64,000 nucleotides of DNA from Candidatus Marinacidobacterium sp. GTDB lineage: Bacteria > Acidobacteriota > Vicinamibacteria > Marinacidobacterales > Marinacidobacteraceae. A program made the position numbers and the translations under genes. The notes beneath the pieces are model-generated. The model did no database searches. It saw nothing but the letters and a program-made list of their open reading frames with translations, and had not been told where the DNA came from. Location of the stretch: the NCBI GenBank assembly GCA_965220965.1, contig CBDCRI010000001.1, positions 288,001 to 352,000 of the forward strand. The letters run 5' to 3'. Within the stretch, counting starts at the first letter, position 1; each line of letters starts with the position of its first letter. Below are positions 28,403 through 51,227 of the stretch, piece after piece.

Positions 28403-28507
28403 TACAGATCAAATCTAGGTCAACACCTGCAATATTTGCAAGTTTCACTCTCATGCAGATCACGTATGTTAGTCGGCAGTTCGTGTTGTCCAGAGGATAC
28501 ATTTGGG

Positions 28508-32226: not shown

Positions 32227-32245
32227 CCCGAGAGTTTCCAACCAC

Positions 32246-33256
32246 ATGGAGAACATGATGCTCGACCAATTCAATGCGTATCTCAACGACGGCGACCTTA
32301 CCGAGGAGGTGACCGCCGCCAACGGCAAGGACACCTACGTGATGCCCAAGCGGCGCAATGCCGGACATGTGGCCATCGCACTCATCCGCGAGATCGTGGC
32401 GCCCACCGTCTTCCGCAATGCGGAGGAGGAAATCACCGACATCGAGGACCGGAAGGGCATTCGCCGCGTGCGGGCGACGCCGAACAAGTTCAAGTTCGGG
32501 GAGCGCGGCCGGGGCCTGTTGGTGCTGCGCGCTTGGAACGTCGGTGGCCGGCTGCCGCAAAACCGCACCGCGGTCGGTCAGCGAATGCCGGTCCGTGAGG
32601 CGTTGGACCTGAACACCCTAGTGTTCGGCGACTCGACCATGTTGGGTACGCGGGTCCTGCCGGTCAAGGCGGCCGTTCAGTACTCCGACGCGCTGAGCAC
32701 CACGCCGTACCGCGAGGCCGTAGGCGAGAGCTTTCACCACCGTGGCGACGAGACCGGAACGTTGTGGGACGCAGAGGGAAAGAAGAACACCGAAAACCTG
32801 TTTACGCGTCACTTCGTGCGACCCGGGACGACGCTGATCCAGATCCTCACCAGCAACGGCCGGCAGCTTCCGCCGATTGGCCTCGACCACCTGCTGCTGA
32901 GCCTTGGCCTCGCCGGCTCTTACGGCGGACAGACCTCGGTGACGGGAGTGAACGTGCGCACGCACATCGCTGGCATCTTCGCCTCGCGTCTTGAGGTGCC
33001 AGTTTCGTCACCTTACGAGTTGCTCCGCAAGGTGCCGGAATCCGGCTCCGCGGACAAGCTGGCAGCCGGGGTGTACCAGGAGATGAAGGAGCACTACCAA
33101 ACGCGCGCCGATGGCGCCGAAGCGTCAGCGCATCAGCGGCAGCTCGTCCATGCGTTCGAGCGCGACGACTCGGAGCTGCGGCGCCGGTATGAAGACGCTG
33201 CGCCCAAGATCGCGGACATGTTCGAGGGGTACTTCAACCCCGAGAAGAAGGCGTGA
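32246..33256 (+). CDS. cas7: Type I-D Cas7 (Csc2)
   Basis: R..FR.....D, K.K..ER..G, VFGDS..V.YSDA and YGGQTS.TG.NVR motifs, plus operon position. Confidence 0.85.
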   Translation: MENMMLDQFNAYLNDGDLTEEVTAANGKDTYVMPKRRNAGHVAIALIREIVAPTVFRNAEEEITDIEDRKGIRRVRATPNKFKFGERGRGLLVLRAWNVGGRLPQNRTAVGQRMPVREALDLNTLVFGDSTMLGTRVLPVKAAVQYSDALSTTPYREAVGESFHHRGDETGTLWDAEGKKNTENLFTRHFVRPGTTLIQILTSNGRQLPPIGLDHLLLSLGLAGSYGGQTSVTGVNVRTHIAGIFASRLEVPVSSPYELLRKVPESGSADKLAAGVYQEMKEHYQTRADGAEASAHQRQLVHAFERDDSELRRRYEDAAPKIADMFEGYFNPEKKA

Positions 33257-33259
33257 ACC

Positions 33260-33922
33260 GTGGCTGCGGCCCTCTTCCCGTTTAAACTGACTGCGCTGTC
33301 GCCCTGGGCATGGCACGGGCTCGCCGTGCCATCGGGAACCTCGACGCTGAACGATGTCGTCACCGACACCGCAATGGCGTTCGCGACGGCGGCGGCGCTG
33401 GGCATGATGCCCCGTTCGCCATGCCTGCCGTCGGCACCCGACTATCGGAACCACTTGGCCGCCTTGCCCTTCAAGACCGCGCTCTTCACGGGGACCGGCA
33501 ACCGGCTCAACCGGCCATTGGCGCGCCGCCTCAACCTCGATCCGGAGTGCGGGATGCCGAAGAGCGTTCACGATGCACGCAACAGCGGCAACGTCAAGGA
33601 CTACTTCCACATCCACGAGGTCGCGGCGGGAGCCGTTTTCCACGGGAGCTTTCTCCACGCCGATCCGATGGAGCTGGCATTCGAAGCCTATGGCGAGAGG
33701 CCGGAAGGGCTCGTCATCCGGCTGGGTTTGGGGAGAAACGGCATGGGACTCCTGCAGCGATGCGACGAACAGGCTCCCGTACGGCTCAATCTCCATACGG
33801 CGCAACTCTTCGATCCAGACGTCGATCTAAGGGCGGGGCCGTATCGCCTGCACAACATCCAGCCCAGCGAACCGCTGGATCCTGACGAGGCTTTGCGCAT
33901 CACCGCCGGTTGGCATCGGTGA
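33260..33922 (+). CDS. cas5: Type I-D Cas5 (Csc1)
   Basis: Follows cas7. D.A..FA and IRLGLGRNG G-loop. Confidence 0.75.
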   Translation: MAAALFPFKLTALSPWAWHGLAVPSGTSTLNDVVTDTAMAFATAAALGMMPRSPCLPSAPDYRNHLAALPFKTALFTGTGNRLNRPLARRLNLDPECGMPKSVHDARNSGNVKDYFHIHEVAAGAVFHGSFLHADPMELAFEAYGERPEGLVIRLGLGRNGMGLLQRCDEQAPVRLNLHTAQLFDPDVDLRAGPYRLHNIQPSEPLDPDEALRITAGWHR

Positions 33923-33929
33923 ACGGACA

Positions 33930-35984
33930 GTGATCATCCGTTCCCATTCAGTGCGCATGCTGCCCAGCGGCCTGTCGCCAATGCAGCAAAGCTTGCTGGA
34001 CTCGGAGCGATTCGTCCGGCTGGTGTCGGCGCCCACGGGCTCCGGAAAGTCCTACGCATTCATGCGCGCGGTGCTGGAGCGCGATGCGCGCGTGCTGTTC
34101 ATCGTGCCCACGAAACGCCTGCTGCAGAACCTGATCGAGGATGCGCGTGAACAGGCGGACGAGCACTGGCGCGATCAGGGCCTCGACGAAGCGCGGCGCA
34201 CCGCCTGGACCAATGAGCGAATTGTCGAGTGGTCCGGCAATCAGGCCGACGACGGCGGCGGGAGCCTGGCGGCCAAACGCGCCGGACAGCTCTTTTCGAT
34301 CAGCGAAGAAAGAACCGGTGGGGTCATCTTCGCCATCCCTGAGGTGGTGGTCTCGTCGATCTCGGGAATCCGCATCAAGGGGGCAAGCGCAATCAACCCC
34401 TTCGAATTCGTGCACGCCTTCGACCATGTCGTGTTCGACGAGTTCCACACAATCGACGACCGCGCCTTTGGCCTGGCCAGCCTTCTGTCGCTGCTCGCGG
34501 TGACGCAACGGCAAGGCAAGGTGTCGCTGCTCTCCGCCACGCCGATAGACGTGACCGGAGTTCTTGCCCGGTGCGGCGTGGGGCCAGACAAGATCGAGAG
34601 CATCCCCGAGGAGATTGTCGATGGGCATCCGCCAGGGCATCGTGAGATACATGGCGACGTGTCGGTGTCCGTAGACCCGCGCACTTTGCCGGAATTGGTC
34701 GAGGCGAACATCGATTCCGTGCGAACCTCGGTCGCGGGCCAGCGCACGGTGATAGTCATCTACGACTCCCTGCAGCGCCTGCGGGAGGACGAGTCGAACC
34801 TGCGAGCGAAGCTTCGCGCCGCCGGCATCGGAGAGGACAGGATTTGCGCCATCAACTCCATCGAAGACTCCAGGCGGGCGCCAGACGAGCCCCGCCGCGG
34901 GCGAAGGTTTGCGGATCCGCGCGACTTCGACGTGCTCATCTGCACATCGACCGTAGAAGTCGGCGTCACGTTCCGCAGCGATCTCATGTTCATGGAGCCC
35001 GGATTTGGAGAGGCCAGCTTCGTTCAGCGGGTGGGCCGAGTGTCGCGCGGCGCGGACGACGGGCAGGTCTTCGTGTCGTTGCCAGAACGCACGCGCGCGC
35101 GCAACGCATGGACACGACGTGTCGAGACCGTCATTCGGGAGAATGCGGAGCTGACGATTCAGGAGTTCACCGAGAATGTCCTTCGTGACGTTAGAAGGCG
35201 GCTTGAGCCGACGCGCAAGGAAGCCGAAGCCGACTGGTCCGCTCCCAACACCGCACTTTCGTTCTACCGGCGCCCCTCGTGGCGCGGCGCATTCTGGGCG
35301 GCGCTTTTCATTGTCGCGATCCGGCGGCAGAAAATGACGGTACAAAGGGCGGCGCGGGAGCGGCTGCGCGCGCTCTCGCCCAGCACCGTGAGGTTCGTCG
35401 ACGCCAAGATCGGCGACATCATGTCCGTGGATGCAGTGAACAACAACCTGCGCAGCGCGTCGCAGCCACACCGGGCATGGGCGAACGCTCTTCTTGCAAG
35501 CGCTCTGACCTACCGCGACATCGGCCGGACCATCCGTGTTGTCGATCCCGACGGCTGCAGCCATGTGGTGTCGGAATCCTATCTCCGGCGAGCCACCGAT
35601 GTTCTAAGGCGGCACATCGTTTCCGACGACAGCGGGGAACCTGTGATCCAATTGCTGTCCCGCAGCCTTCGGGAGGAGGAGAGCAAGGGGTCCTCCGGCC
35701 AGCCGAGGGCGCAGAGGATGACGCTCTACGTCCGTTCCCCGATCGGCGAAGGAGACTTCGCTCTGCCGATCTACGAACGGGAAAGGGGAACCGAGCAGCT
35801 CAACGTGCGTCTTGTCAAGGAATGGCGCAATCAGTTCGCCAACTTCCTGCCAGCGCCGGGCGAGAAAGACATGCATCCGCGGAAGAAAGTGATGGCCGCC
35901 GCCACGGCACTGGTCGAGGTCATCGGCCGGCCGCCGCATGAAGAGGACTATGAGGATTCTGCAGAAAGCGCGATGTTTGCGTGA
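33930..35984 (+). CDS. cas3: Cas3' helicase (no HD domain)
   Basis: APTGSGKS, FDEFH, LSATP, TSTVEVGV and QRVGRVSR. Starts directly at the helicase core. Confidence 0.88.
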   Translation: MIIRSHSVRMLPSGLSPMQQSLLDSERFVRLVSAPTGSGKSYAFMRAVLERDARVLFIVPTKRLLQNLIEDAREQADEHWRDQGLDEARRTAWTNERIVEWSGNQADDGGGSLAAKRAGQLFSISEERTGGVIFAIPEVVVSSISGIRIKGASAINPFEFVHAFDHVVFDEFHTIDDRAFGLASLLSLLAVTQRQGKVSLLSATPIDVTGVLARCGVGPDKIESIPEEIVDGHPPGHREIHGDVSVSVDPRTLPELVEANIDSVRTSVAGQRTVIVIYDSLQRLREDESNLRAKLRAAGIGEDRICAINSIEDSRRAPDEPRRGRRFADPRDFDVLICTSTVEVGVTFRSDLMFMEPGFGEASFVQRVGRVSRGADDGQVFVSLPERTRARNAWTRRVETVIRENAELTIQEFTENVLRDVRRRLEPTRKEAEADWSAPNTALSFYRRPSWRGAFWAALFIVAIRRQKMTVQRAARERLRALSPSTVRFVDAKIGDIMSVDAVNNNLRSASQPHRAWANALLASALTYRDIGRTIRVVDPDGCSHVVSESYLRRATDVLRRHIVSDDSGEPVIQLLSRSLREEESKGSSGQPRAQRMTLYVRSPIGEGDFALPIYERERGTEQLNVRLVKEWRNQFANFLPAPGEKDMHPRKKVMAAATALVEVIGRPPHEEDYEDSAESAMFA

Positions 35985-36513
35985 ACTGGCGGAGGAGCGC
36001 GGCCTGCACGGCCTTTACTTCCAGCATGTGGCCTTGTGCCGACGACGTGCCTGGCTGCACCTGATGGGCGCGACGCACGCCGCCCATCACTCTCGCGTCC
36101 AAAGGGGCCTTGCGCTGCATCAGACCGAGAAGCGCCCCGGAGAGGCGCCACGGGGACTTGGCATTGCGCCTGACGCAATCGACTTCAAGCGCCGCGTTGT
36201 CATCGAAAGGAAGGGGGGCGCCGGAGCAAGCGACGCGGTTTCCAGGCAGGCGCTGTTCTACGCCGCATTCATGACGGGAGCCTCCGGAGAGCACTGGCAA
36301 GCGGAGGTTCACGTCTACGGATCCCGCGCGAAGAGGACCTACCATCTCACTGAGGATGCGCTGGACCGGCTCATCCGCGACGCGCAGGAGAGCCGTGGCT
36401 TGGCAGCCGGGCCGGCGCCACCGGCCCGTCGCATTCCGCTCTGCGAAGCCTGCAGCTGCAATCCCCTGTGCTGGGATGAGGAGCATGATGGACACAGTGA
36501 TCGTACCGCGTGA
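35977..36513 (+). CDS. cas4: Cas4 nuclease
   Basis: CRRRAWL, PD..D, ExK, Q..FY and C-terminal CEACSCNPLC. TTG start inferred. Confidence 0.88.
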   Translation: MRELAEERGLHGLYFQHVALCRRRAWLHLMGATHAAHHSRVQRGLALHQTEKRPGEAPRGLGIAPDAIDFKRRVVIERKGGAGASDAVSRQALFYAAFMTGASGEHWQAEVHVYGSRAKRTYHLTEDALDRLIRDAQESRGLAAGPAPPARRIPLCEACSCNPLCWDEEHDGHSDRTA

Positions 36514-37456
36514 CGCACGGCTGAGCCGTCACGAAAACGCGCTGGTGGTCCTGTCTGACGCTGGGCGCAAGGCGATTCCCCTGCACGGGGTAAAGCACGT
36601 CGTGTGCATGGGCGACGGTTCGATCTCCATTCGCCTGCTCAAGGACATGGGACGAAACGGCATTCGCTTCTCGGTGCTCGATGCAGGGGGACGATTTCTG
36701 GGCGCATTCGAGCCTGAGGATGAAACGCCTTCGGGCCGAGTCCGAGTCGGCCAAGCTTCGCTGTTTCTGGATGAGGCGGCCCGCCTTCGTCTGGCCAAGC
36801 TGATCGTGGCTGCGCAGGTGAAGTCCATGCGAGGGCTGCTGCAACGCTATCGGCGGAATGGCGTCACCGGCATCGAAGCATCCCTGGACGGCATTCAGAG
36901 CGCCCTCGCCCTGGCAAGTGAAGCCGCCAGCATCGAGCAGCTCATGGGCGCAGAAGGGCATGCTCGCGCATTCCTGCACGATGCGTTCAAGGAGGTTTCA
37001 ATGGATGCCCGCCTCGACCGCAGAGTTCGACGTCCGCCTTCAGATCCCGTCAACTGCCTGATGTCGTTCTTCAACATGCTGCTCTACTCCGCGTGCGCGA
37101 GCGAACTCGCCAAGACCCACCTGGATCGGAGCATTTCGTTCCTTCATGCTCCAGGCACCGGCAGGCGTTCGCTCTCGATCGACATGGCCGAGAACTTCAG
37201 GCCGGTGTTGTCGGACGCCCTTCTGCTGTCCATTTTTCGCCGGGGCCATGCGGACCGGTCATGGTTCGATCGGTCGCCCGGAGTATACCTGCTCAGCGAG
37301 AAGGGGCGAATCAAGGCCACGCAGCGCTTTTGGGGGCGCATCGAGGAAAGCGTCGGCGAACAGACGCTTCGGCAGGCGATCCACCGCCAGTGCCTGTCCT
37401 TGGAGCGCGAGGCGTTGGGAATCGGGCGGTTCAGGCCTTTCGTCTGGCGGGGTTGA
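36485..37456 (+). CDS. cas1: Cas1 integrase
   Basis: LMGAEG, RRPPSDPVN.LMSF, SFLH and LSIDMAE.FRP. Catalytic E/H/D are present. Confidence 0.93.
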   Translation: MMDTVIVPRDARLSRHENALVVLSDAGRKAIPLHGVKHVVCMGDGSISIRLLKDMGRNGIRFSVLDAGGRFLGAFEPEDETPSGRVRVGQASLFLDEAARLRLAKLIVAAQVKSMRGLLQRYRRNGVTGIEASLDGIQSALALASEAASIEQLMGAEGHARAFLHDAFKEVSMDARLDRRVRRPPSDPVNCLMSFFNMLLYSACASELAKTHLDRSISFLHAPGTGRRSLSIDMAENFRPVLSDALLLSIFRRGHADRSWFDRSPGVYLLSEKGRIKATQRFWGRIEESVGEQTLRQAIHRQCLSLEREALGIGRFRPFVWRG

Positions 37457-37459
37457 TCG

Positions 37460-37759
37460 ATGTTCGTATTGGTTTCCTACGACGTGCCCGCCAAGCGAAC
37501 GGCGATATTCAGGAAGCTGCTGAAGGGGTTCCTTGTGCACGAGCAGGCTTCCGTTTTCATGGGCGACCTGCCGGAGTCGGAACTCATCAAGTTGACTTCC
37601 GAGATATCGAACAAGATTGGACCGGATGATCGGATACTGAAGCTGGTGTGCCGAAACCGCCACAACGTGGAGGTGGAGCAGCTCAGCAAGGACGCCCTCG
37701 GAGGGCCGATGCGCCAGGACGAAGATGCGTGGCACGGAAAAAACTGGTCTGTGCTCTGA
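37460..37759 (+). CDS. cas2: Cas2
   Basis: MFVLVSYDV and Q.SVF.G motifs, between cas1 and the array. Confidence 0.93.
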   Translation: MFVLVSYDVPAKRTAIFRKLLKGFLVHEQASVFMGDLPESELIKLTSEISNKIGPDDRILKLVCRNRHNVEVEQLSKDALGGPMRQDEDAWHGKNWSVL

Positions 37760-37888
37760 CCCATTCATTTACGCGCTTGGAAGAAAATCTGCCGATGGCC
37801 GGGCGTCAGGCGCAGTTTTCCAGCCTTTCCGGCGCGCAATGGTAACTACATGCTGCAATAGGGCAACAAAAACCCTATGATTTCGAGG
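37760..37888 (+). promoter_or_regulatory. Leader of the type I-D array
   Basis: Non-coding, relatively AT-rich stretch between cas2 and repeat 1. Degenerate repeats are at the far end of the array. Confidence 0.7.
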
Positions 37889-39358
37889 GTTCCCAATCCC
37901 CATGAGGGGTAATGAGGAGGACGTTCGAACGAAGCTTAAGCAGCATACGTTGTTCCCAATCCCCATGAGGGGTAATGAGGAGGTTGTGGAGTACACCCAG
38001 AACCTAAAGAACATGAGTTCCCAATCCCCATGAGGGGTAATGAGTACTGCGACCCGCCCTATGTCAACAGCGCCGTGAACGGTTCCCAATCCCCATGAGG
38101 GGTAATGAGCCCGTCAACCTGCCGAAGCGCATCCCGTGGTTCAAAGTTCCCAATCCCCATGAGGGGTAATGAGCGGCAGCCTTGCGCTCGCGCTTGGCCG
38201 GTTGGTTCATGTTCCCAATCCCCATGAGGGGTAATGAGACGGACGCATTCACTCAAACCGTCAGCCAGAGCATAGGTTCCCAATCCCCATGAGGGGTAAT
38301 GAGAAATGCTGAAAGGCGTGTACAAGTTGCTCAAGGAAAAGTTCCCAATCCCCATGAGGGGTAATGAGGGTTTGTTTCACCAATGAGGAAAGACAATGCT
38401 GCAAAGGTTCCCAATCCCCATGAGGGGTAATGAGTATGCCGTGTACTGGATCAAGCAGGCCGTGCAGCGCAGCGGTTCCCAATCCCCATGAGGGGTAATG
38501 AGTATCCCGCTGTGGCGCATCACGGCGTAAGCCGTCTGACGTCGTTCCCAATCCCCATGAGGGGTAATGAGCAGCGACTTCTGAACCGAACTGCCGGCAA
38601 GCGTTCCCGGTTCCCAATCCCCATGAGGGGTAATGAGGTTCAGGTCGATGGTCATCGCAGCAACTCCAGCAGCACGTTCCCAATCCCCATGAGGGGTAAT
38701 GAGTCTAGAGCAAGGAGGCTCTAAGCAATGGAGAACAAAGGGTTCCCAATCCCCATGAGGGGTAATGAGCCAGTTGCACTCAAGTATGAAGGCATCGCCG
38801 ATCCGGGTTCCCAATCCCCATGAGGGGTAATGAGATGCAAACCTTCACTTTCGCCGAAACCCCTGCCGGAACGTTTCCCAATCCCCATGAGGGGTAATGA
38901 GTTGGCCAGCCCTCGGCAATGCGGGTCAAGGATGAGGTTGTTCCCAATCCCCATGAGGGGTAATGAGTTACGGACCGTGCTCTAGTCGCTTCGCGACCCA
39001 AGCCCTTTACCAATCCCCATGAGGGGTAATGAGATGGGAGCAGAGCCACCCGTAGAACTGCAGGACGGACAGTTCCCAATCCCCATGAGGGGTAATGAGG
39101 ATGACAAGCTGAGGCGCAAGGACGCCTGCAAGGGTGGTTCCCAATCCCCATGAGGGGTAATGAGAGGGTGACGTGCCTTATGGCTTTTGGTACTGTGAGA
39201 CGTTCCTAATCCCCATGAGGGGTAATGAGGACTTCTGCGCCGACGTCGACGGGGGGCTGACGCGCGTTCCCAATCCCCATGAGGGGTACCCAGTTGAACG
39301 CTGACCGCTTCGAGGTTTGCGCGGCGGCCCGTTCCCACTCCCGATGAGGGGCATGGGT
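37889..39358 (+). CRISPR. CRISPR array: 28-bp repeat GTTCCCAATCCCCATGAGGGGTAATGAG, 23 repeats / 22 spacers
   Basis: Counted by eye. Spacers are ~35-41 bp. The last two repeats (39266, 39331) are degenerate. Confidence 0.97.
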
Positions 39359-39693: not shown

Positions 39694-40515
39694 TCAGGGC
39701 CGCATTGCCCCGCTTGCCGGCGGCGCTCCCCGCAGGCACTTCAGGTGGCTCTGCAGTTCGGCGTCGGCCTCCAGGTTGGCCATGAGCGCCAGCAGCACGT
39801 CGTCGAAGTCGCATCTTGGCCAGGCCAGGGTCTCGTCCGCCTCGAAAGTCTCGCGCCACGCCCTCTCCTGCTCCCCGTCGAAGTTGAGCGTCCAATCGTG
39901 CAGGCGGACCTTGTTGTCCAGCGTGATCGCGTCGCCGTGCTTGGCCGTCAGCCAAGCGGCGTCGTAGAGGTCCCTGGCCTGAACGCGCCGGTCATCTCCC
40001 ACCAGCGCGTTCAGCTTGAGGCTGGCGAGCGTGGGCATGTCATAGACGGCGAGCCCGTCCACCATGACGATTCGGTCCTGGTCAAGGCGGGGCTTGCGGA
40101 TGCCGTCGCGCACGTTGACGTCGATTTTGGCGCGGAAGGGCTCCGCGAATCCGGCGTGGCGGAACCAAAGGCGGACGTAGCCGCGCCCGTGCTGCTTGAC
40201 GTCGAGCCGCTCGACTTCGAGGTCCTTGCGTTGCGCCAACGTCCTGCCGACCCTTTCCACCACGTCGACGCGCCTGGCCACGTCAAGGTCCAAGTCCATG
40301 GAAGGGCGCGTCAGCCCGTAGGCGGCCGCCAGCGCGGTCCCGCCCTTGAGCGCAAACCACCGCTGGCCCTGCGGCGGGCCAAGGGACAGCCCCCGGACGA
40401 CATGGACCAGCACGCCCAGCAGGGCGCGCTCGCGGGGCGAGAGTGCAACCTCCGGCGGCGGCGTGCCGCCGGTCAAGTCGAAAGCCCGTGGCGCATGTGC
40501 GTTCCCTTCTCCCAA
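39694..40515 (-). CDS. AbiEii-family nucleotidyltransferase toxin
   Basis: LKGGTAL...YGL.RPSMDLDLD, KIDV, KL.AL and R.QARDLYD motifs. Confidence 0.85.
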   Translation of the reverse strand: MGEGNAHAPRAFDLTGGTPPPEVALSPRERALLGVLVHVVRGLSLGPPQGQRWFALKGGTALAAAYGLTRPSMDLDLDVARRVDVVERVGRTLAQRKDLEVERLDVKQHGRGYVRLWFRHAGFAEPFRAKIDVNVRDGIRKPRLDQDRIVMVDGLAVYDMPTLASLKLNALVGDDRRVQARDLYDAAWLTAKHGDAITLDNKVRLHDWTLNFDGEQERAWRETFEADETLAWPRCDFDDVLLALMANLEADAELQSHLKCLRGAPPASGAMRP

Positions 40516-41105
40516 TCCGCATCCGGCGACAGGTCGCGCGTCCAGCGGCTCCAGAGTCGCAGCGCCTCCCCCTCAAGGGCCGCCGCCAAGGCGCGCACCA
40601 GCCGGTGGAGGTGCCCGAACTGGGCCTCAGTCCACAGCCACTTGGCCACCGAAGGCCCGTCGTAGGGGCCTGGGAAGCCCGTTGGCCGGCTGGCCAACCA
40701 GTCCCATGCGCCGTCCGCGATGGCCCGGTCATGGCGCGCCGCCCACACGGGAGCCGCCGAGCTCCCCTGCGGGTGCCCGATCAGGCGCAGTGACGGCCGG
40801 GCGTCGAACAGCCGGTCCCAGCCAAGCAGATTTGCCGGCGTGCGCAACGTGAAGCCGTTTCTGGCCTTGTTGGCGAGCAGCATCTCCATCCCGTTTCCGG
40901 TGCGGCCTTCGGCGGGAACGAACCAAGAGCCCTCGGCGTGCCAGTCGCCGCCTGACGGGCAGTCGGGATCGACGAGGTTGAGCGCATGAATGCCGGTCAG
41001 GTACTGGCTCACGCTGGTCGGGGGAATGCGAACGGGAATGGCCTGCGCCCAGGCCGGCGCGGGCGCATCAGGGCCTCTTCGGGTCGGTTGGTGCCTGTCG
41101 GCCAT
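40473..41105 (-). CDS. Putative antitoxin of the downstream nucleotidyltransferase
   Basis: Upstream and overlapping. YLTGIHALNL...GDWH and A.H.RAIAD motifs. Possibly SanaA-like, unverified. Confidence 0.65.
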   Translation of the reverse strand: MADRHQPTRRGPDAPAPAWAQAIPVRIPPTSVSQYLTGIHALNLVDPDCPSGGDWHAEGSWFVPAEGRTGNGMEMLLANKARNGFTLRTPANLLGWDRLFDARPSLRLIGHPQGSSAAPVWAARHDRAIADGAWDWLASRPTGFPGPYDGPSVAKWLWTEAQFGHLHRLVRALAAALEGEALRLWSRWTRDLSPDADWEKGTHMRHGLST

Positions 41106-41195: not shown

Positions 41196-42185
41196 TCAAG
41201 CCTGCGGCGCGCCCCCGCCGGCCAGCGCTGGCCGCGGACCCGACCCGGGGCGAGGCGCTTCCAGGATCGCCTCGCGGAGCATGCCGAACCGATGTTCGAG
41301 CTCCAACTGGACCGTGCCGGGCAGCAGCAGCTGGTTGCGCAGCCTGGCGGCAGGCAGGTCGAGCACGGTCAGCGGCGCGCCGCCCTCCCCGCCCTTAGCC
41401 AAGCCGATGACGAGGGCCTCCTTGCCGTCGGGCGCGCGCGAGGTCACGCAATCCTCGTCGTGCCAGTCCGCCGTCAGCCGGTCCAGAAGCGAAAGGCCCG
41501 TCTCCCCTGGGCTGAAGGACAGGCCGCGCCCGGGGAGGGCGCGCCGCCAGATGAAGCGGTTGCGGCGCTCGCCAAGGTCCAGCGCGAGCGCCCGAAGGGC
41601 CTTCAGGGCCTGCGAGTCGGGCCCTTCGGACAGGCCGCGGCAGACGGCCAAGGCCATGTGGCCAACGACCTCCCCGGCGCGGCCGGCTTCGCCGGAGCGC
41701 ACCGCCTCCAGCGCCAGCCGGCTGCAGTCCCGCACAACCTGCTTCGCGTACGTCGCTAGCGGCGGCCCGGCGGGATTGGCGTCCCCGGGCTGCGCGAGCT
41801 CGGCCAAGGGGGCCTCCAGCCGCTTGAACAGGGCCTTGACCTCGGCGGCGTAGGCCGCCTCCCGGCCCTTCGCGTCGGCGTCGGAGCCCTCCGGCCCGGC
41901 GGTCACCAACGGATAGCTCATGCGCAGGGCAACGAAGGTCCGCGACCAGTCCGTGAGGGCCGCGGGGGCAGCCCTCAACTCGAGCCGGAGGCCGCCCGCG
42001 CCCTCCATGAACAGGGGGGCGTTCCGGGTTCCCTTGGGCATGGTGAGAAACTTCGCCTTGGCCTTGATGGCCCGCTCGACGAGGGCGCGTCCCTCGGCCA
42101 GCCCCTCTTCGGGCGCGGCCGCCTCGCCGAGGACGGACGCCCGATACCCATACTCGGACGCCAAGGCCTTGCGAACCATGCTCAT
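41196..42185 (-). CDS. Hypothetical protein
   Basis: 329-aa protein-like ORF with upstream TACAAT (~42227). Divergent from array A. Confidence 0.65.
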   Translation of the reverse strand: MSMVRKALASEYGYRASVLGEAAAPEEGLAEGRALVERAIKAKAKFLTMPKGTRNAPLFMEGAGGLRLELRAAPAALTDWSRTFVALRMSYPLVTAGPEGSDADAKGREAAYAAEVKALFKRLEAPLAELAQPGDANPAGPPLATYAKQVVRDCSRLALEAVRSGEAGRAGEVVGHMALAVCRGLSEGPDSQALKALRALALDLGERRNRFIWRRALPGRGLSFSPGETGLSLLDRLTADWHDEDCVTSRAPDGKEALVIGLAKGGEGGAPLTVLDLPAARLRNQLLLPGTVQLELEHRFGMLREAILEAPRPGSGPRPALAGGGAPQA

Positions 42186-42553
42186 CTCGGTCTTTCCCTG
42201 GCGGCTCGGCTGGCCGTTCCGGCGCATTGTAGTGGCTCCCTGCCGAACCGGCCCGCCTGGGCCCCTGGCCCGCGGACGCACGGACGTTCGCCGAGGCCCC
42301 GCTCAAGGATCAGCCCCGCGGCTCGGAGCAGGCGGGCGGCATGCCGAGCCGTCCATGCGCTGAGCGGACAGGCCTCGGCCGGGCGTTGCGGCTTTCCCTA
42401 GGCGACGGATGCCTCGAGCGGCGCGAGTCAAGGACTTGACGCTGGGCCTTCGCAACGTGTTGTAGACTGGGCGCCATTGGCCGTTTCGCCCCATGGTAGG
42501 AGACGACATCGAATTGACGAAAACAACTGCGGCTCAGGCGCTTAATCGATAGA

Positions 42554-42947
42554 GGCTGCCCCGCCCGTGCGGGGATGACCCCTCAGAAGCCTAGATTTTC
42601 ATCACTTTCTGATAGGCTGCCCCGCCCCTGCGGGGATGAACCCAAACAGGCAGCCACGCACTTCGACGAATTGGCGGCCGCCCCGCCAGCGCGGGGATGG
42701 CCCTTGGAAACGGCGGGGTTGATCACTCGGGTGGAGGATGGCCCCGCCTGCGCGGGGATGGACCCTTCGGCGTGTGTTTCGACGGGCTTTTCATCGAGTT
42801 AGCCCCGCCTGCGCGGGGATGGACCCTCGGGTATTCCTCGTGAAATGCTTTTGGATCAATTAGCCCCGCCAGCGCGGGGATGAACCCACAGCCATGTTGC
42901 GACCGGCCGAAAGCTGGCGATGGCGCCGCCCATGCGGGGATGGGGCC
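42554..42947 (+). CRISPR. Orphan array A, type I-E-like 29-bp repeats (7 repeats / 6 spacers)
   Basis: CCCCGC-nnnn-GCGGGGATG hairpin repeats with a 61-bp period. Repeat ends and loops vary. Confidence 0.9.
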
Positions 42948-43479
42948 AGGCTTCTGTTGAAGCCTCGGCGAGGGGTCGCCGCGTGCCTGTCAGAGCGGGC
43001 GCGGACCGCAAAGCGGCCGCGCCGCATGCTTCGGTTCGCGGCCGGCGTGCATGCCACGTCCCCACCGGGTTTTCGCGAGGCGCCAGAGGCAGGCATGGGA
43101 GGCCGCTGAACCGTCGCTTGCCGCCTATGCCTGCCTCGACGTAAAGCCTGGGAAGCCCGCCCCTAAGTCAGGGAAGGCCCGGCGGTGGGGGCCCGACTTT
43201 CGGCGTGCCTGTCGCGCTCAAGGATCAGGGTGCCGGTCCGGGCGCGCTCCCACCCAGGATGGCCCATCCATGCCGTGACCGGGGAGGCTCCGTCCGATGA
43301 CGCGGCCGGCTCGGCGCCGGCCTGCCACGCCGACCGATGGCGGTGGCGGCGGTGAGGAGCCGATCCCTGGCGCTGGGCCCACGCCAGGTGTTGTACACTG
43401 GCGGCGTTGCGCCGTTCATGGGGGAAATCGATTTAACGGATCAGACATTGTGAGTTTCAACAAGGACTTAATGGATAGG
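42948..43479 (+). repeat. Inter-array block (trailer + leader), copy 1
   Basis: Closely similar to 43693-44123 and 44580-45123. Starts with hairpin AGGCTT-ctgttg-AAGCCT and ends ...GATCAGACATTGTGAGTT.CAACAAGG.CTTAA..GATAGG. Confidence 0.85.
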
Positions 43480-43692
43480 GTCGGCCCCGCCAGCGCGGGG
43501 ATGGGCCTTTGCCGCCGCACATGTCGATGAGGCGCGAGCCGTTAGCCCCGCCAGCGCGGGGATGGTCCCCGAGGTGAGACGGCCATTAGGTCGGAAGAAG
43601 AAGTTAGCCCCGCCCGAGCGTGGATGGCCCCTCGATTCGGACGCAGCTTGGTCTAATTGCTTCGTTAGCCCCGCCAGCGCGGGGATGGAGCG
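43480..43692 (+). CRISPR. Orphan array B (4 repeats / 3 spacers)
   Basis: Same I-E-like repeat family, 32-33 bp spacers. Confidence 0.88.
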
Positions 43693-44123
43693 AGCCTTCT
43701 GTTGCAGCCTCGGCGAGGGGAGGCTCTGTACCTGCCAGAATGGGCACGGACCGCGCGGATCACAAACAATGTCCGCCTCGACGTCAAGCGAAGGAAGCCC
43801 GCCACGATGTCAGGGAAGGCACGGCGGAGGCGGCCCTGACTCTCGGCGTGGCTGTCGCGCTCAGGGATCAGGTTGCCGGTCCGGGCGCGCTCCCACCCAG
43901 GATGACCCGTCGATGCCGTGACCGGGGAGGCCCAGTCCGATGACGCGGCCGGCTCTGCGCTGGCCTGCCACGCCGACCGATGGCGGTGGCGGCGGCGAGG
44001 AGCCAAGCCCTGACGCCTGGCCTTCGACATGTGTTGTACACTGGAGGCGCGCCGTTCATGGGGGGAGGATATCGAGTTAACCGATCAGACATTGTGAGTT
44101 GCAACAAGGGCTTAAGGGATAGG
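43693..44123 (+). repeat. Inter-array block, copy 2 (internal deletion of ~100 bp)
   Basis: Matches copies 1 and 3 but lacks the CGGTTCGCGGCCGGCGTGCATGCCACG segment. Confidence 0.85.
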
Positions 44124-44579
44124 GTTGGCCCCGCCAGCGCGGGGATGGACCCCTCTTGAACACCATCGGCGCAACGCTCAAGCCGTTGGCCCCGCCAGCG
44201 CGGGGATGGACCCGCTATGTTGGGGAAGGGTGTCTCGTCGAGAAGGTTGGCCCCGCCTGCGCGGGGATGGACCCCTCTTGGCAAAGATGAATTTTGCCAC
44301 GCAATCGTTGGCCCCGCCTGCGCGGGGATGGACCCTGCATTCGACGGCAGCTTGCTCTCATTGCTTCGTTGGCCCCGCCAGCGCGGGGATGGACCCCTCA
44401 TTGAAATGATGACCAGTGACTCCACCGAGCTTGCCCCGCCCGAGCGGGGATGATCCCTTGAGAAAGTGGCCAGCGACGCCAATGCTCCAGTTGGCCCCGC
44501 CCGCGCGGGGGAGAGCCCGTTGCATGTTGACGCCGCGATCGCGAGCGAAGCTTTGCCCCGCCCACGCGGGGATGGAGCG
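44124..44579 (+). CRISPR. Orphan array C (8 repeats / 7 spacers)
   Basis: Leader-proximal repeats are GTTGGCCCCGCC(A/T)GCGCGGGGATGGACCC. Distal repeats are degenerate. Confidence 0.92.
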
Positions 44580-45123
44580 AGGCTTGTGTTGCAGCCTCGG
44601 CGAGGGGAGCCTCTCCAACTGCCAGAACGTGCTCGGATCGCTTGGATCGCAAAGCGGCCGCGCCACAAGCTTCGGTTCGCGGCCGGCGTGCATGCCACGT
44701 CCCCACCCAGGTTTTCGCGAGGCGCCCGAGGCTGGCTTTGGCGGCCGCTGAGCCGTCGCCTGCCGCCAATGCCTGCCTCGACGTCAAGCGAAGGAAGCCC
44801 GCCCCCGGAAGTCAGGGAAGGCCGGCGGTGGGGCCCCGGCCTTCGGCGTGCCTGTCGCGCACAAGGATCAGGTTGCCGGTCCGGGCACGCTCCCACCCAG
44901 GATGACCCGTCGATGCCGTGACTGGGGAGGCCAAGCCCAATGGCGCGGTTGGCTCGGAGCCGGCCTGCCATGCCGACCGATGGCGGTGGCGGCGGCGAGG
45001 AGCCAACCCCTGACGCCTGGCCTGCGCCATGTGCTGTACACTGGAGGCGCGCCGTTCATGGGGGGAGGCTATCGAGTTAACGGATCAGACATTGTGAGTT
45101 GCAACAAGGGCTTAAGGGATAGG
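44580..45123 (+). repeat. Inter-array block, copy 3
   Basis: Collinear with copy 1. Confidence 0.85.
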
Positions 45124-45815
45124 GTTGGCCCCGCCTGCGCGGGGATGGACCCACAAGAACCGCCTATGATGGATCTTGAGGCCGGTTGGCCCCGCCTGCG
45201 CGGGGATGGACCCTCGTGGAACATCCGCGTTGGGTAAGCGCGCGTGTTGGCCCCGCCTGCGCGGGGATGGACCCTTTCTAAACGGAAGTTGTGTCGCAGT
45301 TGTGTGGTTGGTCCCGCCGGCGCGGGGATGGACCCGAGAAGGGAGCGACATCAGGTCGGAAGAAGAAGTTAGCCCCGCCTGCGCGGGGATGCACCGGAGT
45401 CCAAGACCGCCTGTGTGCCTGCAGCGCGATTGCCCCGCCCGAGCGGGGATGGGCCGTTGGATGAGCAGGTCCTTTCCCGCAAGGCAAAGTTGGCCCCGCC
45501 CATGCGGGGATGGCCCGCATTCAAAAACCGCATGCGCGCCTGCGTTGCGCCGGCCCCGCCCTTGCGGGGATGGTCCCTATGACGATGTGACGCTGCAGAC
45601 AGCAGAGGAGCGTTGGCCCCGCCTGTGCGGGGATGAACCCACTCCTCGGTCCGCTTTGCCCACTGCACGGCTTCGCTGGCCCCGCCCAAGCGGGGATGGC
45701 CCTTTGTCCAAGACCGCATGCGTGGCTGCAGCGCCTTGGCCCCGCCCGTGCGGGGATGATCCCGGCGCGCAGTGGATGGCGCCTGCCTTCGTCGGTTTGG
45801 CCCCGCCCGCGCGCT
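45124..45815 (+). CRISPR. Orphan array D (11 repeats plus a partial 12th / 11 spacers)
   Basis: Same repeat family, with uniform repeats near the leader and variable ones distally. Confidence 0.92.
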
Positions 45816-46007
45816 CCCCGCGTCCGCTTCGGACCCGCGAAAGCTGCGGCTGCGCCACGCGCCGCCGGAGAAGGCCCTTGCTGGCAAAGGCCTCCCGGCA
45901 GCCGGCCGGGACCGCCCGTGAACCCGAACCCGCCATGGCCGCCTGCGGGCGCGAAGGCGGCGGGATTTGCTTCAATCCGCCCTGAACACTTCCGGAGCGG
46001 ACGCCCG

Positions 46008-47180
46008 ATGAACGACGCCGACATCCTCCCCGCCCCCCGCATCGCCGATGCCTCCGACGCCTTGCACAGCTGGCTGCGGTCGCACCTTGCCGTCCCCACC
46101 AAGGCGAGGATGTGGGGCGTGGAGGGAACCTTCACCCCGCCGCTGTCCAGGGCGGTCTACGGGGACGGCGGCGCCATCCTCTGCGTCTGCGACAGGCGCG
46201 CCCGCCCCGCCTTCTGGCAGGTGCGCATCGACAGCAAGTGGCGCATCGGGACCGAGCCCGGCCGCGACCACGCCGCCCTCGACTTGGGCAAGGCCATCCG
46301 CGAGATCGCGGCCAACTTGGCGGCTGAGTTCGCGCCCCTGGACACCGAGGTCGAGGCCGCGGAGGAGAAGGCCCAGCAGGCGGACGACGAAATCGATTGG
46401 ATGCGGGACTGCGACCCGGAGGCGGCCTTCATGGACCCAGGCCTTCCCAGGGACGCGCACGGCAACTTGGCGATCGACATCAGCGACGGCGTGATGTTCT
46501 GGCGCGGCGGCGCGACCGCCGCGCCGACGGCCGTGCGCCACTGCGCGTTCGGCGAGGCGGGCGTCGGCGAGCTCGACGTGATGCACCACGGGATCGTGGA
46601 GCCGGTCAGGATCGGGGGCGTCCTAGTGATGCCCCGCGTCGCGGACGCCTCCGAGGCCGAGCACCTGCGCCTGCAGGCGCTCCTGTGCGCGCCTCGGGAG
46701 GGGCGCCTTTGGGAGCACTCCCGGCCGGTCAAGTTCACGCCAGCGCTGTCGCGCGCGGTCTACGGCGACGGCAAGGGCCTCATCGGCATCACGACCATCA
46801 GCGACCGGCCGCGGTACTGGCTGGTGCGCATCGACAGCCAGTGGATGGTGCCGGGCCGCAGCTGCGACGCCGAGCGCCGGCTGCCCCCCGACGCGCCGGA
46901 CGTGGGCGAGGCCATGGAGGGCATAGAGGTGAACCTCATCGCTGAGTTCGGCTCCTCCGACCCGGAAGCCTACCTCGACGATGAGATCGCCGACTGCGAC
47001 GACTGCTGCGGCCGCGGGTGCGACGCCTGCGCCCACACCGGCTACGGGCCCGAGGGCACGCCGCCGGACTTCCCGGCCATCGATCTGACCGACGGGACCA
47101 GCTGGTGGCGCGAGGACTACCCGGCGCCGTCCGCGGACGCCCGGCCGCGCAAGGCGCGCCTTCCCGCCCCCGCCGTCTAG
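46008..47180 (+). CDS. Hypothetical protein with a duplicated domain and C-terminal CxxCxGxGCxxC zinc-finger-like motif
   Basis: Two copies of PRxADAS..FTPxLSRAVYGDG..RPxxWxVRIDSxW, followed by CDDCCGRGCDAC. Confidence 0.8.
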   Translation: MNDADILPAPRIADASDALHSWLRSHLAVPTKARMWGVEGTFTPPLSRAVYGDGGAILCVCDRRARPAFWQVRIDSKWRIGTEPGRDHAALDLGKAIREIAANLAAEFAPLDTEVEAAEEKAQQADDEIDWMRDCDPEAAFMDPGLPRDAHGNLAIDISDGVMFWRGGATAAPTAVRHCAFGEAGVGELDVMHHGIVEPVRIGGVLVMPRVADASEAEHLRLQALLCAPREGRLWEHSRPVKFTPALSRAVYGDGKGLIGITTISDRPRYWLVRIDSQWMVPGRSCDAERRLPPDAPDVGEAMEGIEVNLIAEFGSSDPEAYLDDEIADCDDCCGRGCDACAHTGYGPEGTPPDFPAIDLTDGTSWWREDYPAPSADARPRKARLPAPAV

Positions 47181-47257
47181 GCCGTAGGCGCCGGCCGCGG
47201 CACCGTTGGTGGCGCGCTTCCTACAATCTCGGGCATCGCTTCACGTGGGGGGCCGAC

Positions 47258-48373
47258 ATGCCCGACCCGGCAGGCAGCAGGGCGCCATGCGGGCGCCTGG
47301 AGGACGCCGTCATCGACGGCGACCGGTTTTCGCCGCGGACCGCCGCCCCGTCGGACGCCGAGCACGGGCGCTGGCGCGCGCTGCTGGAGGCGCCGACCAG
47401 GGCCAAGGTCTGGGGCGCGGGGCCGGAGCGGGCGTTCATCCCGCCGCTCTCCTCGACCGTGTACGGCGACGGCGAGGCGGTCCTGTGCGTGTCGCCCATC
47501 AAGTCGCGGCCGGCCTTCTGGCAGGTGCGCATCGACAGCGAGTGGCGCCATGGCGACGGCGGCGGCCCGCCGCGGCGCAACAGCGACGTGGCCCAGGGGG
47601 TCCACGCGATCGCCCGCAACCTCGCGCGGGAGTTCGGCGCCGCGTTCGACCTCTCCGAAGGCTTCTCGTGGCAGCGCGGCGGCCCCGACGCCGCCGTCCC
47701 GAGGGATCCGGACAAGCCGCACTACCACCCGGTCCTGCGCTTCGGCCTCGAAGCGCCGGGCGCGATGGCGCGCAGCGAGCTCGACGGGAGGCTTGGGCAC
47801 GTGGACGTGGGCCCGGGGAACGCCCTGCGGTCCGCCGAGGCCATCGCGGTCTGCCCGCGGGTCGCGGACGCCGCCGACGTCGAGCACGAGCGGCTGCGCG
47901 CCGCGCTGTGCGTGCCCCAGACGGGAGAGCTGCGGGGCCAGCCGGTCGAGTTCACGCCGCCGCTGTCCAATGCCGTGTACGGGGACGGACGCGCGCTGCT
48001 GTGCGTCTCCACCCGCAACGACCGCCCCAAGCACTGGCTGGTCCGCATCGACAGCCAATGGCGGGTCGTTGGGGATCCGCACCTGCCGCCGGACGCGCCC
48101 GATGTCAAAGGGATGATCCTGGCCATCCTCGACAACCTAGAGGCGGAGTTCGGCGACGGCGGCCTCAACAGCCGCTTCACCGGGAAGCGCTGCGGCGCCT
48201 GCCCCGCTGAAGGCGCCTGCGAGTCCTGCCAGGGATGCGGCTTCGAGCCTTGCTGCGAGCCGCCCGAGTTTCCGGCGATCGACACCTCCGTCGGCTTCGG
48301 CTACTGGCGGCAGGACTACCCGCAGCCGCCTGCCCCGAGGCGGCTCCCCAACGCTTCCGCCTGTGGGCCGTAA
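47258..48373 (+). CDS. Paralog of 46008..47180
   Basis: Same two-domain layout, with CGAC...CESCQGCG. Upstream TACAAT at 47222. Confidence 0.8.
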   Translation: MPDPAGSRAPCGRLEDAVIDGDRFSPRTAAPSDAEHGRWRALLEAPTRAKVWGAGPERAFIPPLSSTVYGDGEAVLCVSPIKSRPAFWQVRIDSEWRHGDGGGPPRRNSDVAQGVHAIARNLAREFGAAFDLSEGFSWQRGGPDAAVPRDPDKPHYHPVLRFGLEAPGAMARSELDGRLGHVDVGPGNALRSAEAIAVCPRVADAADVEHERLRAALCVPQTGELRGQPVEFTPPLSNAVYGDGRALLCVSTRNDRPKHWLVRIDSQWRVVGDPHLPPDAPDVKGMILAILDNLEAEFGDGGLNSRFTGKRCGACPAEGACESCQGCGFEPCCEPPEFPAIDTSVGFGYWRQDYPQPPAPRRLPNASACGP

Positions 48374-49679: not shown

Positions 49680-49897
49680 CGGGCCGCCGGCGCCGACGTC
49701 CCAGCGCCTGACCTCGCCGGGGGCCGCCGGACGGGGCGCGGCCGCCATCGCCCTCTCCGGATCCATCGCCCGCATCGCCGCCATGGCCCCTTCCCCCGCC
49801 GAAGCCCGCGGGCGCCCGCCTTCGCCCCCGCCGCGGCGCCCGCCCCGCGGGACGGCCCCGGCCCGCCGGAAGGCGCCCTGAGCCGGCCGGAGCGGTC

Positions 49898-49977
49898 AAT
49901 CGAATCAAAAAGACGGCGTTTTTGATTCGATTAGGGGGCTTAATCGCATCAAAAAACGCTATTATTTGATTCGATTA
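49898..49977. promoter_or_regulatory. Two related inverted repeats upstream of the Fic gene (putative operators)
   Basis: Perfect 14-bp IR AATCGAATCAAAAA-N7-TTTTTGATTCGATT, then a near-perfect TAATCGCATCAAA-N11-TTTGATTCGATTA. Confidence 0.7.
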
Positions 49978-49994
49978 GCGGGAGAACGTCGATC

Positions 49995-51227
49995 ATGTGG
50001 ATGTGGGAGAGGCCGGACTGGCCGGAATTCAGGTTCGAGGAGGGTCGCTTGGCGGACGCCATGAGGCGCTTCGCGGAGGCGGACGCGGGTCTCGTCGGCC
50101 GCTCGGAGGGCTTCGGGGACGAGTGGCGCCGGGAGCTGGCCGTCGAGCTGATGTTCGCCGAGGCGCTGGCGTCGCACGCCATCGAGGGCGAGGCGCTTGA
50201 CAGCGAGTCGGTGCGCTCGTCGCTGCTGCTGGCCCTGGGGGGGCTGTCGGAGAGCCCGCGCCGGGACCCCCGGATCGCCGAGGGCGGCGCCGTCGCCCTG
50301 ATCCTGGACGCGCGGCGCCATTGGGACCAGCCCCTGACCAAGCAACGGCTGTGCGCCTGGCAGTCGATGGCGCTCGCCGGCCGGGCGAAGCCCACTCTGG
50401 AGGTCGGCGACTACCGGAGCGGCCCGGAGAAGATGGGCATCGTCAGCGGCAACGGCAGCCTGCACGGGTTCAAGCCCATGCGCGTGCACTACGAGGCGCC
50501 GCCCTCCGACCGCGTGCCCGCCGAGATGGCCCGCTTCCTTGAGTGGTTCAACGCCTCGCGCGGGCGCATCAACGGCCTGGCGCGCACGGCGGTGGCCCAC
50601 CTCTGGTTCGAGAAGATCCACCCGTTCGACGACGGCAACGGCCGCGTCGGGCGGGCGCTGGCGGACCTGGCGGCCTCGCAGGCGCTCGGGCGCCCGACGC
50701 TGTCGTGCCTGGCCACGGCCATCAACCAGGACCGCGACCCCTACTACCGCGCCCTGGAGCAGGCCGGCCGGGACGGCATGGACGTCAACCCCTTCCTCGA
50801 CTACTTCGCGGGCGTGGCGCTGCGCGCCCAGGAGATCGCCCTTCGGGAGGTGCGCTTCGTGCTCGGCAAGGCGCGCTTCTTCAGCCGCTTCGACGCCCGG
50901 CTCAACGCCCGGCAGCGCAAGGCGGCGCTGCGCGTCTTCGCCGAGGGCTCCAAGGGCTTCGCCGGCGGCCTGTCGCGCAACAACTACCAAGCCATCACCA
51001 AGGCCTCCAGCGCCACCGCCACCCGCGACCTCGCCGACCTGGTGCGCATCGGCGCCATGACATCGGCCGGCGAGGGCCGCAGCGTGCGCTACGCGCTGGC
51101 GACCGACCCGCCCCAGCACCTGCTGCTGGAGGCGCTCGCGGACGGCGCGCCCGCCGGCGCCGCCCCCGAGGCCGAAGCGCACGGCCAGCCGCGGCGCCGG
51201 TCGAGGAGCGCCTCCCCAGGCCCCTGA
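49995..51227 (+). CDS. Fic-family protein (DUF4172-type N-terminus, C-terminal HTH)
   Basis: MW.WE.PDWPEF, S.AIEGE, HPFDDGNGRVGR and Y..ITKASSATATRDL motifs. Confidence 0.92.
   Translation: MWMWERPDWPEFRFEEGRLADAMRRFAEADAGLVGRSEGFGDEWRRELAVELMFAEALASHAIEGEALDSESVRSSLLLALGGLSESPRRDPRIAEGGAVALILDARRHWDQPLTKQRLCAWQSMALAGRAKPTLEVGDYRSGPEKMGIVSGNGSLHGFKPMRVHYEAPPSDRVPAEMARFLEWFNASRGRINGLARTAVAHLWFEKIHPFDDGNGRVGRALADLAASQALGRPTLSCLATAINQDRDPYYRALEQAGRDGMDVNPFLDYFAGVALRAQEIALREVRFVLGKARFFSRFDARLNARQRKAALRVFAEGSKGFAGGLSRNNYQAITKASSATATRDLADLVRIGAMTSAGEGRSVRYALATDPPQHLLLEALADGAPAGAAPEAEAHGQPRRRSRSASPGP

Follow-up and report, generated by a model that had tools for sequence, protein, structure and literature searches.

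Why should a bacterial contig carry four CRISPR arrays of one type in a row, each behind a leader of its own, with no cas gene of that type beside them? The question is raised by a stretch of 64,000 nucleotides (nt; hereafter the window) from Candidatus Marinacidobacterium sp., whose genome is assembled as two contigs, C1 of 2.88 Mb and C2 of 363 kb, the window being C2:288001-352000. Positions without a contig name are those of the window. C2 is termed here no more than a second contig or replicon; the control of the RepC search matched nowhere, and a search for near-identical plasmids gave no match. An initial annotation of the sequence had read the arrays as an orphan multi-leader cassette of type I-E that uses a Cascade and Cas1-2 in trans and thereby multiplies its acquisition sites. 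The answer we favor, and hold to be likely, is that leader-array modules belonging to a reduced I-E system were duplicated in tandem and probably still feed Cascade in trans.

That these are genuine type I-E arrays is hardly in doubt. A repeat finder and a fuzzy genome-wide scan agree with the initial annotation in placing four arrays on the plus strand, where 42554-45824 holds 30 full 29-nt repeats and one truncated repeat in four runs with a spacing of 60-63 nt. The consensus, GTTGGCCCCGCCTGCGCGGGGATGGACCC, is presumably of the I-E type, judging by its likeness to the E. coli repeat and to arrays adjoining annotated I-E loci. It folds into a 6-bp GC-rich stem with a 4-nt loop (CCCCGC / loop / GCGGGG), followed by an 8-nt handle, AUGGACCC, and the stem is intact in 28 of the 30 full repeats in the window. 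Because the plus strand yields the hairpin and then the handle, the leader copies lie on the expected side. Array A (42554-42947) has 7 repeats and 6 spacers, and its terminal repeat leaves the consensus after GGGGATGG; array B (43480-43692) has 4 repeats and 3 spacers, and array C (44124-44579) 8 repeats and 7 spacers. Array D (45124-45824) comprises 11 full repeats (45124-45763) and 11 spacers; of its 12th repeat, which follows spacer 11, only the first 18 nt remain (45796-45813). Spacers in the window are 31-34 nt long, most commonly 32, and those of distal units are irregular, at 31-36 nt. The assignment is completed by a leader before repeat 1 and, elsewhere on the contig, by a cognate Cascade with Cas6e beside an array of the same repeat.

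This Cascade was recovered when the replicon was searched for I-E cas genes with a matching repeat. An uninterrupted operon, cas8e-cas11-cas7-cas5-cas6e, lies at C2 ~155.5-160.3 kb, about 170 kb upstream of the four arrays, so that a Cascade able to serve them in trans, as the initial annotation had supposed, does exist on the same contig. The operon has no internal stops; Cas7e matches with 322 bits over 1-325/325, Cas5e over 1-229/230, and Cas8e with 384 bits (PADLOC Cas8e model), Cas11e and Cas6e also match at full length, and the G+C content at third codon positions (GC3) of cas8e and cas7e is 0.94-0.96. Arrays of the same repeat begin 2.5 kb downstream of it: E1a (C2 162769-162920) with 3 degenerate repeats and E1b (C2 163450-163971) with 9, followed about 30 kb farther on by E2 (C2 190769-191590) with 14. 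On C1, the repeat has isolated chance-level matches only (7-8 mismatches). Three degenerate I-E-like repeat hairpins with ~61-64-nt spacing, on the minus strand at C2 ~283.64-283.80 kb, 4 kb before the window, are probably the remnant of an eighth array. The arrays in the window are thus isolated ones, with no cas genes of their subtype nearby and a repeat of the same family as that of E1b. The term "orphan" holds for the 64-kb window, which has no I-E cas gene, but not for the contig.

The other half of the system was not found in the assembly. There are 0 matches to the Cas1e and Cas2e models TIGR03638 and TIGR01873, and the sole Cas1 belongs to a type I-D system; the only matches to Cas3-type hidden Markov models (HMMs) are the Cas3g of a type I-G system on C1 and the Cas3' of the I-D system. 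When Cas3, Cas1e, and Cas2e from Roseomonas mucosa and Bosea plasmids were used as tblastn queries, only a 53-55-aa match to Cas3g was returned; the Roseomonas Cas7e, Cas5e, and Cas6e queries of the same search recovered the C2 homologues. As a positive control, the Cas1e model detected Cas1e in three of four related genomes carrying Cas7e. In the absence of Cas1e and Cas2e from the assembly, the arrays cannot now grow by cognate adaptation. The proposal of Cas1-2 in trans thus fails in this assembly by both HMM and tblastn, and the multiplication of acquisition sites is not a present-day function there. Similarly, with neither a Cas1e-Cas2e module nor a Cas3 the system is not a complete I-E one, and with no cas3e in the assembly, canonical Cas3 shredding is unavailable to it.

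The stretches between the arrays show how such a cluster could have been built. They are, as the initial annotation had noticed, three homologous blocks, of 532, 431, and 544 nt, with pairwise ungapped identities of 87.1, 86.9, and 90.0%. Block 1 (42948-43479) consists of a trailer (42948-43214) and leader B (43215-43479); block 2 (43693-44123) of a trailer with a ~113-nt deletion and leader C (43858-44123); and block 3 (44580-45123) of a trailer and leader D (44858-45123). The 3' ~265 nt of a block is the leader, and the 5' part comprises 165-278 nt, some of which must be dispensable, since the ~113 nt present in blocks 1 and 3 are absent from block 2. The 256 nt before array A (42298-42553) form leader A, which is homologous to leaders B-D but diverged from them, as had also been proposed: global alignment scores are 10 against leader B and 2 against leader D, as opposed to about -141 +/- 17 for shuffles (n = 200), and aligned-column identity is 81% to B and 74% to D. 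All four leaders carry a 12-nt motif, which reads TGTTGTAGACTG in leader A (42458-42469) and recurs in leaders B (43389-43400), C (44032-44043), and D (45032-45043). The corresponding pattern, TG[CT]TGTA[N]ACTG, has exactly 6 matches on both strands of the 3.25-Mb genome (~0.4 expected by chance genome-wide, estimated from base composition), and each of them precedes the first repeat of one I-E array (E1b, E2, A, B, C, or D) by 91-106 nt. Adjoining repeat 1 of these arrays is a further conserved element, CTTA(A/G) within (G)GNCTTAA..ATAGG; E1a has neither this element nor the motif. A degenerate leader-repeat pattern had no match among metagenome contigs. Two smaller claims about these regions stand in part. 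The -10-like site survives as a TAnACT hexamer inside the conserved leader motif, but a strict sigma-70 scan found 0 sites, so that the promoter and its -10-like site are putative; the hairpin after the terminal repeats is present, but it is no stabler than shuffled sequence (z = -1.5, -1.85, and -0.6) and folds differently in all three block copies.

These observations suggest that the cluster most likely grew by unequal crossing-over between repeats of neighboring arrays. The suggestion follows from four features taken together: the three blocks share one starting point inside a terminal repeat, after GGGGATGG; the downstream flank of array D has no homologue of the trailers of A, B, and C; some spacers have relatives in other arrays; and a derived GTTAG repeat variant is common to A, B, and D. 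With regard to the spacers, 8 of 1225 pairs outscore the maximum of 4900 shuffled pairs, the related sets (~78-90% identity) being B_s3~C_s4, B_s2~D_s4, D_s5~D_s10~D_s7, E1a_s2~E1b_s7, and E2_s4~E2_s10~E1b_s6; in array B, spacer 2 is thus a diverged relative of D spacer 4, and spacer 3 one of C spacer 4. The locus adjacent to the cas genes has the same two-array structure and a copied repeat-spacer-repeat unit, and E1a seems to be a copy of part of E1b (a repeat-spacer-repeat unit with 86% identity over 73 nt). One spacer family of 31-36 nt, with the core GACCG..TGCG/GTGCCTGC, includes D_s5, D_s7, and D_s10 (45396-45795) and, by eye, E1a_s2 and E1b_s7 (C2 162.8 and 163.8 kb), and so occurs at two loci. 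Alternatively, such spacer families may stem from related protospacers that were taken up independently. Recombination has already been named in print as a force behind the evolution of arrays (PMC4524480). The cluster would accordingly have been built by repeated tandem duplication of a module of trailer, leader, and array segment, in which each crossing-over would duplicate the trailer-leader block together with array segments, and drift, loss of spacers, and some later uptake would follow. The last step bears on a further claim of the initial annotation, that C and D grew separately after duplication. Repeats 1-5 of C and 1-3 of D do lie within 1 nt of the consensus, and the spacers of the two arrays differ; separate growth is therefore plausible, but it must date from a time when Cas1-2e was available.

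The repeats themselves bear signs of both age and constraint. The 56 repeats of the genome comprise 48 forms and the 30 of the window 24, whereas arrays adjoining complete I-E systems are far more uniform (forms/repeats of 1/53, 8/34, 4/29, 2/63, 4/44, and 2/15). The variation is nonetheless confined to positions 1-4, the loop, and three positions of the handle. The 12 stem positions have 6/672 mismatches to the consensus, in contrast to 191/896 at the other positions from 1 to 28, a difference whose Fisher p of 4e-42 is only indicative because the repeats share descent; in the window alone the figures are 3/360 and 93/480, and all six stem pairs are kept in 52 of the 56 repeats. Any ascertainment bias should be confined to the array ends, since inside the arrays no unit is absent from the 61-nt lattice. 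To judge by these substitutions, the pattern points to a long period of little turnover with ongoing selection on the Cas6e hairpin. The same logic underlies the interpretation of type VII systems, which lack adaptation genes and whose multiply substituted repeats are taken as a sign of rare spacer uptake (PMC12669027).

Taken together, these features would make each array, behind its own leader of ~260 nt, a separately transcribed unit. Cas6e would then cut the transcripts at the conserved repeat hairpin, and the genome's sole I-E Cascade would be loaded with the resulting CRISPR RNAs (crRNAs). The guides could act through Cascade binding alone, that is, by silencing, or along with another nuclease. 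We put the chance that the guides are in present use at somewhat better than even.

The sequence of the locus is well supported by reads. Logan contigs of four sequencing runs (X1-X4) were aligned to 42000-46200; X1 may be the source of the assembly. With 0 differences, X1 contigs cover 42000-43057 (flank, leader A, array A, and into block 1), 43037-43260, 43323-43903 (leader B, the whole of array B, and 211 nt of block 2), 43966-44135, 44126-44275, 44370-44698 (joining the end of array C to block 3), 44678-44917, and 45216-46200. Their depth is 88-117 within the locus, with flanks at 100.5 and 84.1; because this is the level of the flanks and not a fraction of it, the arrays are not alternative alleles of one site. 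X2, a run from another study with a depth of 2-3, gave matching contigs with 0 differences as well. X3 and X4 yielded only repeat-like pieces with other spacers. In X3, a metagenome from another study, many contigs combine the repeat type with unrelated spacers, indicating that related I-E arrays exist elsewhere.

With these data, the idea that the tandem arrangement is an assembly artefact, in which strain variants of one array were stacked head to tail, becomes barely credible. Units that are 87-90% similar might well confuse short-read assemblers, and no contig spans them all, yet unit-specific junctions occur without a difference in runs from two studies and at flank-level depth in X1, the spacers differ among the four arrays, and the blocks carry different indels. 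The assembly is thus sound with respect to the strain-mix misassembly that the initial annotation had named as a possible refutation. Only slightly less remote is the proposal that the block is a functional unit in its own right, be it a gene for a small RNA or protein or a mobile element inserted into one long array. It would account for the presence of three copies at 87-90% identity that all join the repeat at the same position, and one minus-strand frame is indeed open over a 217-nt gapless stretch in all of them. However, substitutions fall on the three codon positions in the ratio 11:13:14 and the indels measure 1, 2, 3, 4, and 9 nt, on which grounds a coded protein was rejected. The encoded RNA suggested by the initial annotation fares no better: the consensus fold of the three blocks has no covariation support (covariation term +4.45, n = 3), block 2 dispenses with ~113 nt, and Rfam has no block match at gathering score or E <= 1, the sole match being a chance one to pRNA at 46109-46193. 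As for a mobile element, no copy of the block was found elsewhere in the genome, and 40 relatives searched contain only 22-52-nt chance-level matches to it; moreover, its 3' half is simply a leader, homologous to leader A. An active cassette that multiplies acquisition sites, with I-E Cas1-Cas2 provided in trans, merits somewhat more attention but is still improbable. The uniform leader-proximal repeats and unrelated spacers of C and D, as well as the repeat-proximal junction kept in all leaders, are what it would predict, and adaptation genes are often missing from systems on plasmids, which are believed to borrow them (PMC9071438). Against it, the only Cas1 in the assembly is that of the I-D system, which serves a 28-nt repeat with 35-37-nt spacers, and heterogeneity prevails among the repeats, in contrast to arrays with turnover.

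A stronger contender, though still an unlikely one, is that the arrays and leaders are decaying relics that have been neutral and unused since cas3, cas1, and cas2 were lost. The absence of cas1e, cas2e, and cas3e from the assembly, the 48 forms among 56 repeats, the irregular distal spacers, the complete locus in the closest relative, and the lack of protospacers all fit this picture. On the other hand, the stem varies ~24-fold less than the remainder of the repeat, the five Cascade genes are intact with full-length matches, and the leader motif is retained in six otherwise diverged leaders. The preservation of stems, motifs, and genes alike argues against neutral decay, which should strike all of them equally. 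The reading of duplicated modules that still supply Cascade must itself contend with several adverse points. The canonical step of interference is lacking in the absence of Cas3. The contigs listed from X1 leave 44918-45215 uncovered and none spans the locus, so that it is the assembly itself that fixes the order of the units. Common descent links the repeats, which were moreover found by their likeness to a consensus, and thus the test on the stems overstates their independence. In C and D, the repeats nearest the leader are almost identical and their spacers unrelated, which resembles fairly recent acquisition and sits uneasily with a long absence of Cas1-2e; in the same vein, the mean GC of the spacers is 0.553 and has not drifted to the 0.71-0.73 of the genome, and it tracks repeat decay weakly and without significance (rho 0.25, p 0.08). 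As the assembly, in its 2 contigs, is 94.4% complete by marker genes, cas1, cas2, and cas3 may reside on an unassembled plasmid. The closest relative of the Cascade, whose Cas7e (67%) is the nearest among 401 genomes of the class, has the complete locus cas3...cas6e-cas1-cas2-array. The reduced state is therefore one of loss, in a horizontally acquired system, and the loss of the three genes could be compatible with decay too. Two genomes of the same genus have no match to Cas7e, the metagenome contigs have no relative of it, and the genome contigs have one further locus, at 42%. Finally, none of the 50 spacers led to a protospacer: in their own genome they have only 13-21-nt chance-level matches, while 55 genomes of the order yield nothing beyond short GC-rich or repeat-to-repeat ones; a phage collection has no match and a plasmid collection only other I-E arrays, IMG/VR not being included. 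A bolder version of the favored reading is possible, but we regard it as doubtful, if a little less so than decay: a long-lived, non-adaptive I-E system, made of a plain Cascade without Cas1, Cas2, Cas3, or a fused nuclease, that would keep under selection a fixed set of ~50 guides and multiply its arrays by repeat-mediated duplication of modules and not by the uptake of spacers. If true, it would comprise seven to eight arrays at three loci of a single secondary replicon, and would act either by binding alone, as a natural form of CRISPR interference (CRISPRi) directed at host genes or rival elements, or with the help of an unrecognized partner nuclease.

A complete type I-D system (27710-38368, plus strand; cas6d, cas10d, csc2, cas5d, cas3', cas4, cas1, and cas2 with an array) precedes the I-E arrays in the window. 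As the initial annotation had stated, it uses a different repeat; this is 28 nt long and stands in 8 identical copies at 37889-38368, with spacers of 35-37 nt. Between its array and the I-E arrays lies an AbiEi/AbiEii toxin-antitoxin or abortive-infection pair (39694-41105, minus strand). The open reading frames (ORFs) that flank the I-E arrays, one of 361 aa at 41196-42281 (minus strand) and those of about 390-515 aa and 451 aa at 45633-48373 (plus strand), have a coding-like GC3 of 0.89 and match no Pfam, NCBIfam, or PADLOC family. Farther downstream is a SoFic-like Fic/DOC protein (49995-51227), preceded by an 18-nt (49826-49878) and a 44-nt (49898-49982) tandem repeat. Upstream of the Cascade operon, C2:148-155.5 kb encodes a DUF6915 protein, a UvrD/GajB-like helicase, and an ORF weakly resembling PAPS reductase, along with ~1.3 kb of doubtful coding. 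The type I-G system on the other contig (C1:1450.9-1461.8 kb) comprises cas7g, csb2, cas3g, and a Cas3-extension protein; its array, with a 36-nt repeat in about 28 units, is interrupted by an IS21 element and has within it an exact duplication of four units. The genome yielded no Cas1 for this system.

More generally, the cluster illustrates how recombination, as opposed to spacer uptake, can multiply arrays. Less usual is that an I-E system without adaptation genes and Cas3 should have hairpins, a leader motif, and Cascade genes that all look constrained. If the guides are used, this would be a natural type I Cascade working without a nuclease, which bears on the origin of type IV and of transposon-linked Cascades; if they are unused, the locus offers a well-resolved snapshot of the decay of a CRISPR locus.

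Comparable systems share single features with this one. In the CRISPR-II of E. coli (CRISPR2.2 and CRISPR2.3), I-E arrays are likewise remote from cas-E and served in trans, and they lie 0.5 kb apart, with a promoter-bearing leader beside the array (PMC3903273); unlike that case, there are here four tandem units with three homologous trailer-leader blocks, highly heterogeneous repeats, and no cas1, cas2, or cas3 of the subtype that could be found. The isolated I-F arrays of Pseudomonas aeruginosa are also far from cas genes and have a copied CR2-like leader, and they are discussed as duplications of a leader with a few repeats that share few spacers and function in trans (preprint, PMC13142298). 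However, those arrays are dispersed and horizontally moved in a system competent for adaptation, whereas the present ones stand head to tail in a reduced system. Several I-B arrays stand in a row at one locus of Leptospira interrogans too, in another subtype and between two cas operons (PMC9372919). As for the missing genes, type VII and plasmid type IV systems are likewise without adaptation genes, and type VII shares the multiply substituted repeats (PMC12669027), but the effector here is an ordinary I-E Cascade and not Cas14 or a type IV complex. Adaptation genes are often lacking in plasmid systems, which have them in 36% of cases against 88% for chromosomes (PMC9071438). Other derivatives of the I-E Cascade are I-E2, with a Cas5-HNH fusion and typically without Cas3, and I-E3, in which Cas11 is fused to a PD-(D/E)xK nuclease (PMC12669027, PMC10910872). 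The present system is neither, since no extra nuclease domain occurs in its Cas5e, where the match is contiguous (1-229/230), or in its Cas11 ORF, which matches CRISPR_Cse2 only. An I-E-derived CRISPR-associated transposon (CAST) was also considered and set aside: no transposase family occurs among the 18 ORFs from 7.5 kb upstream to 6.7 kb downstream of the operon, beyond which no wider search was made. In the open-access literature, we found no described precedent for the combination as a whole. Arrays remote from cas genes and related or copied leaders are thus already known; what is new is a matter of degree, namely a fourfold head-to-tail amplification with traceable homology, within a Cascade-only I-E system whose hairpins look selected.

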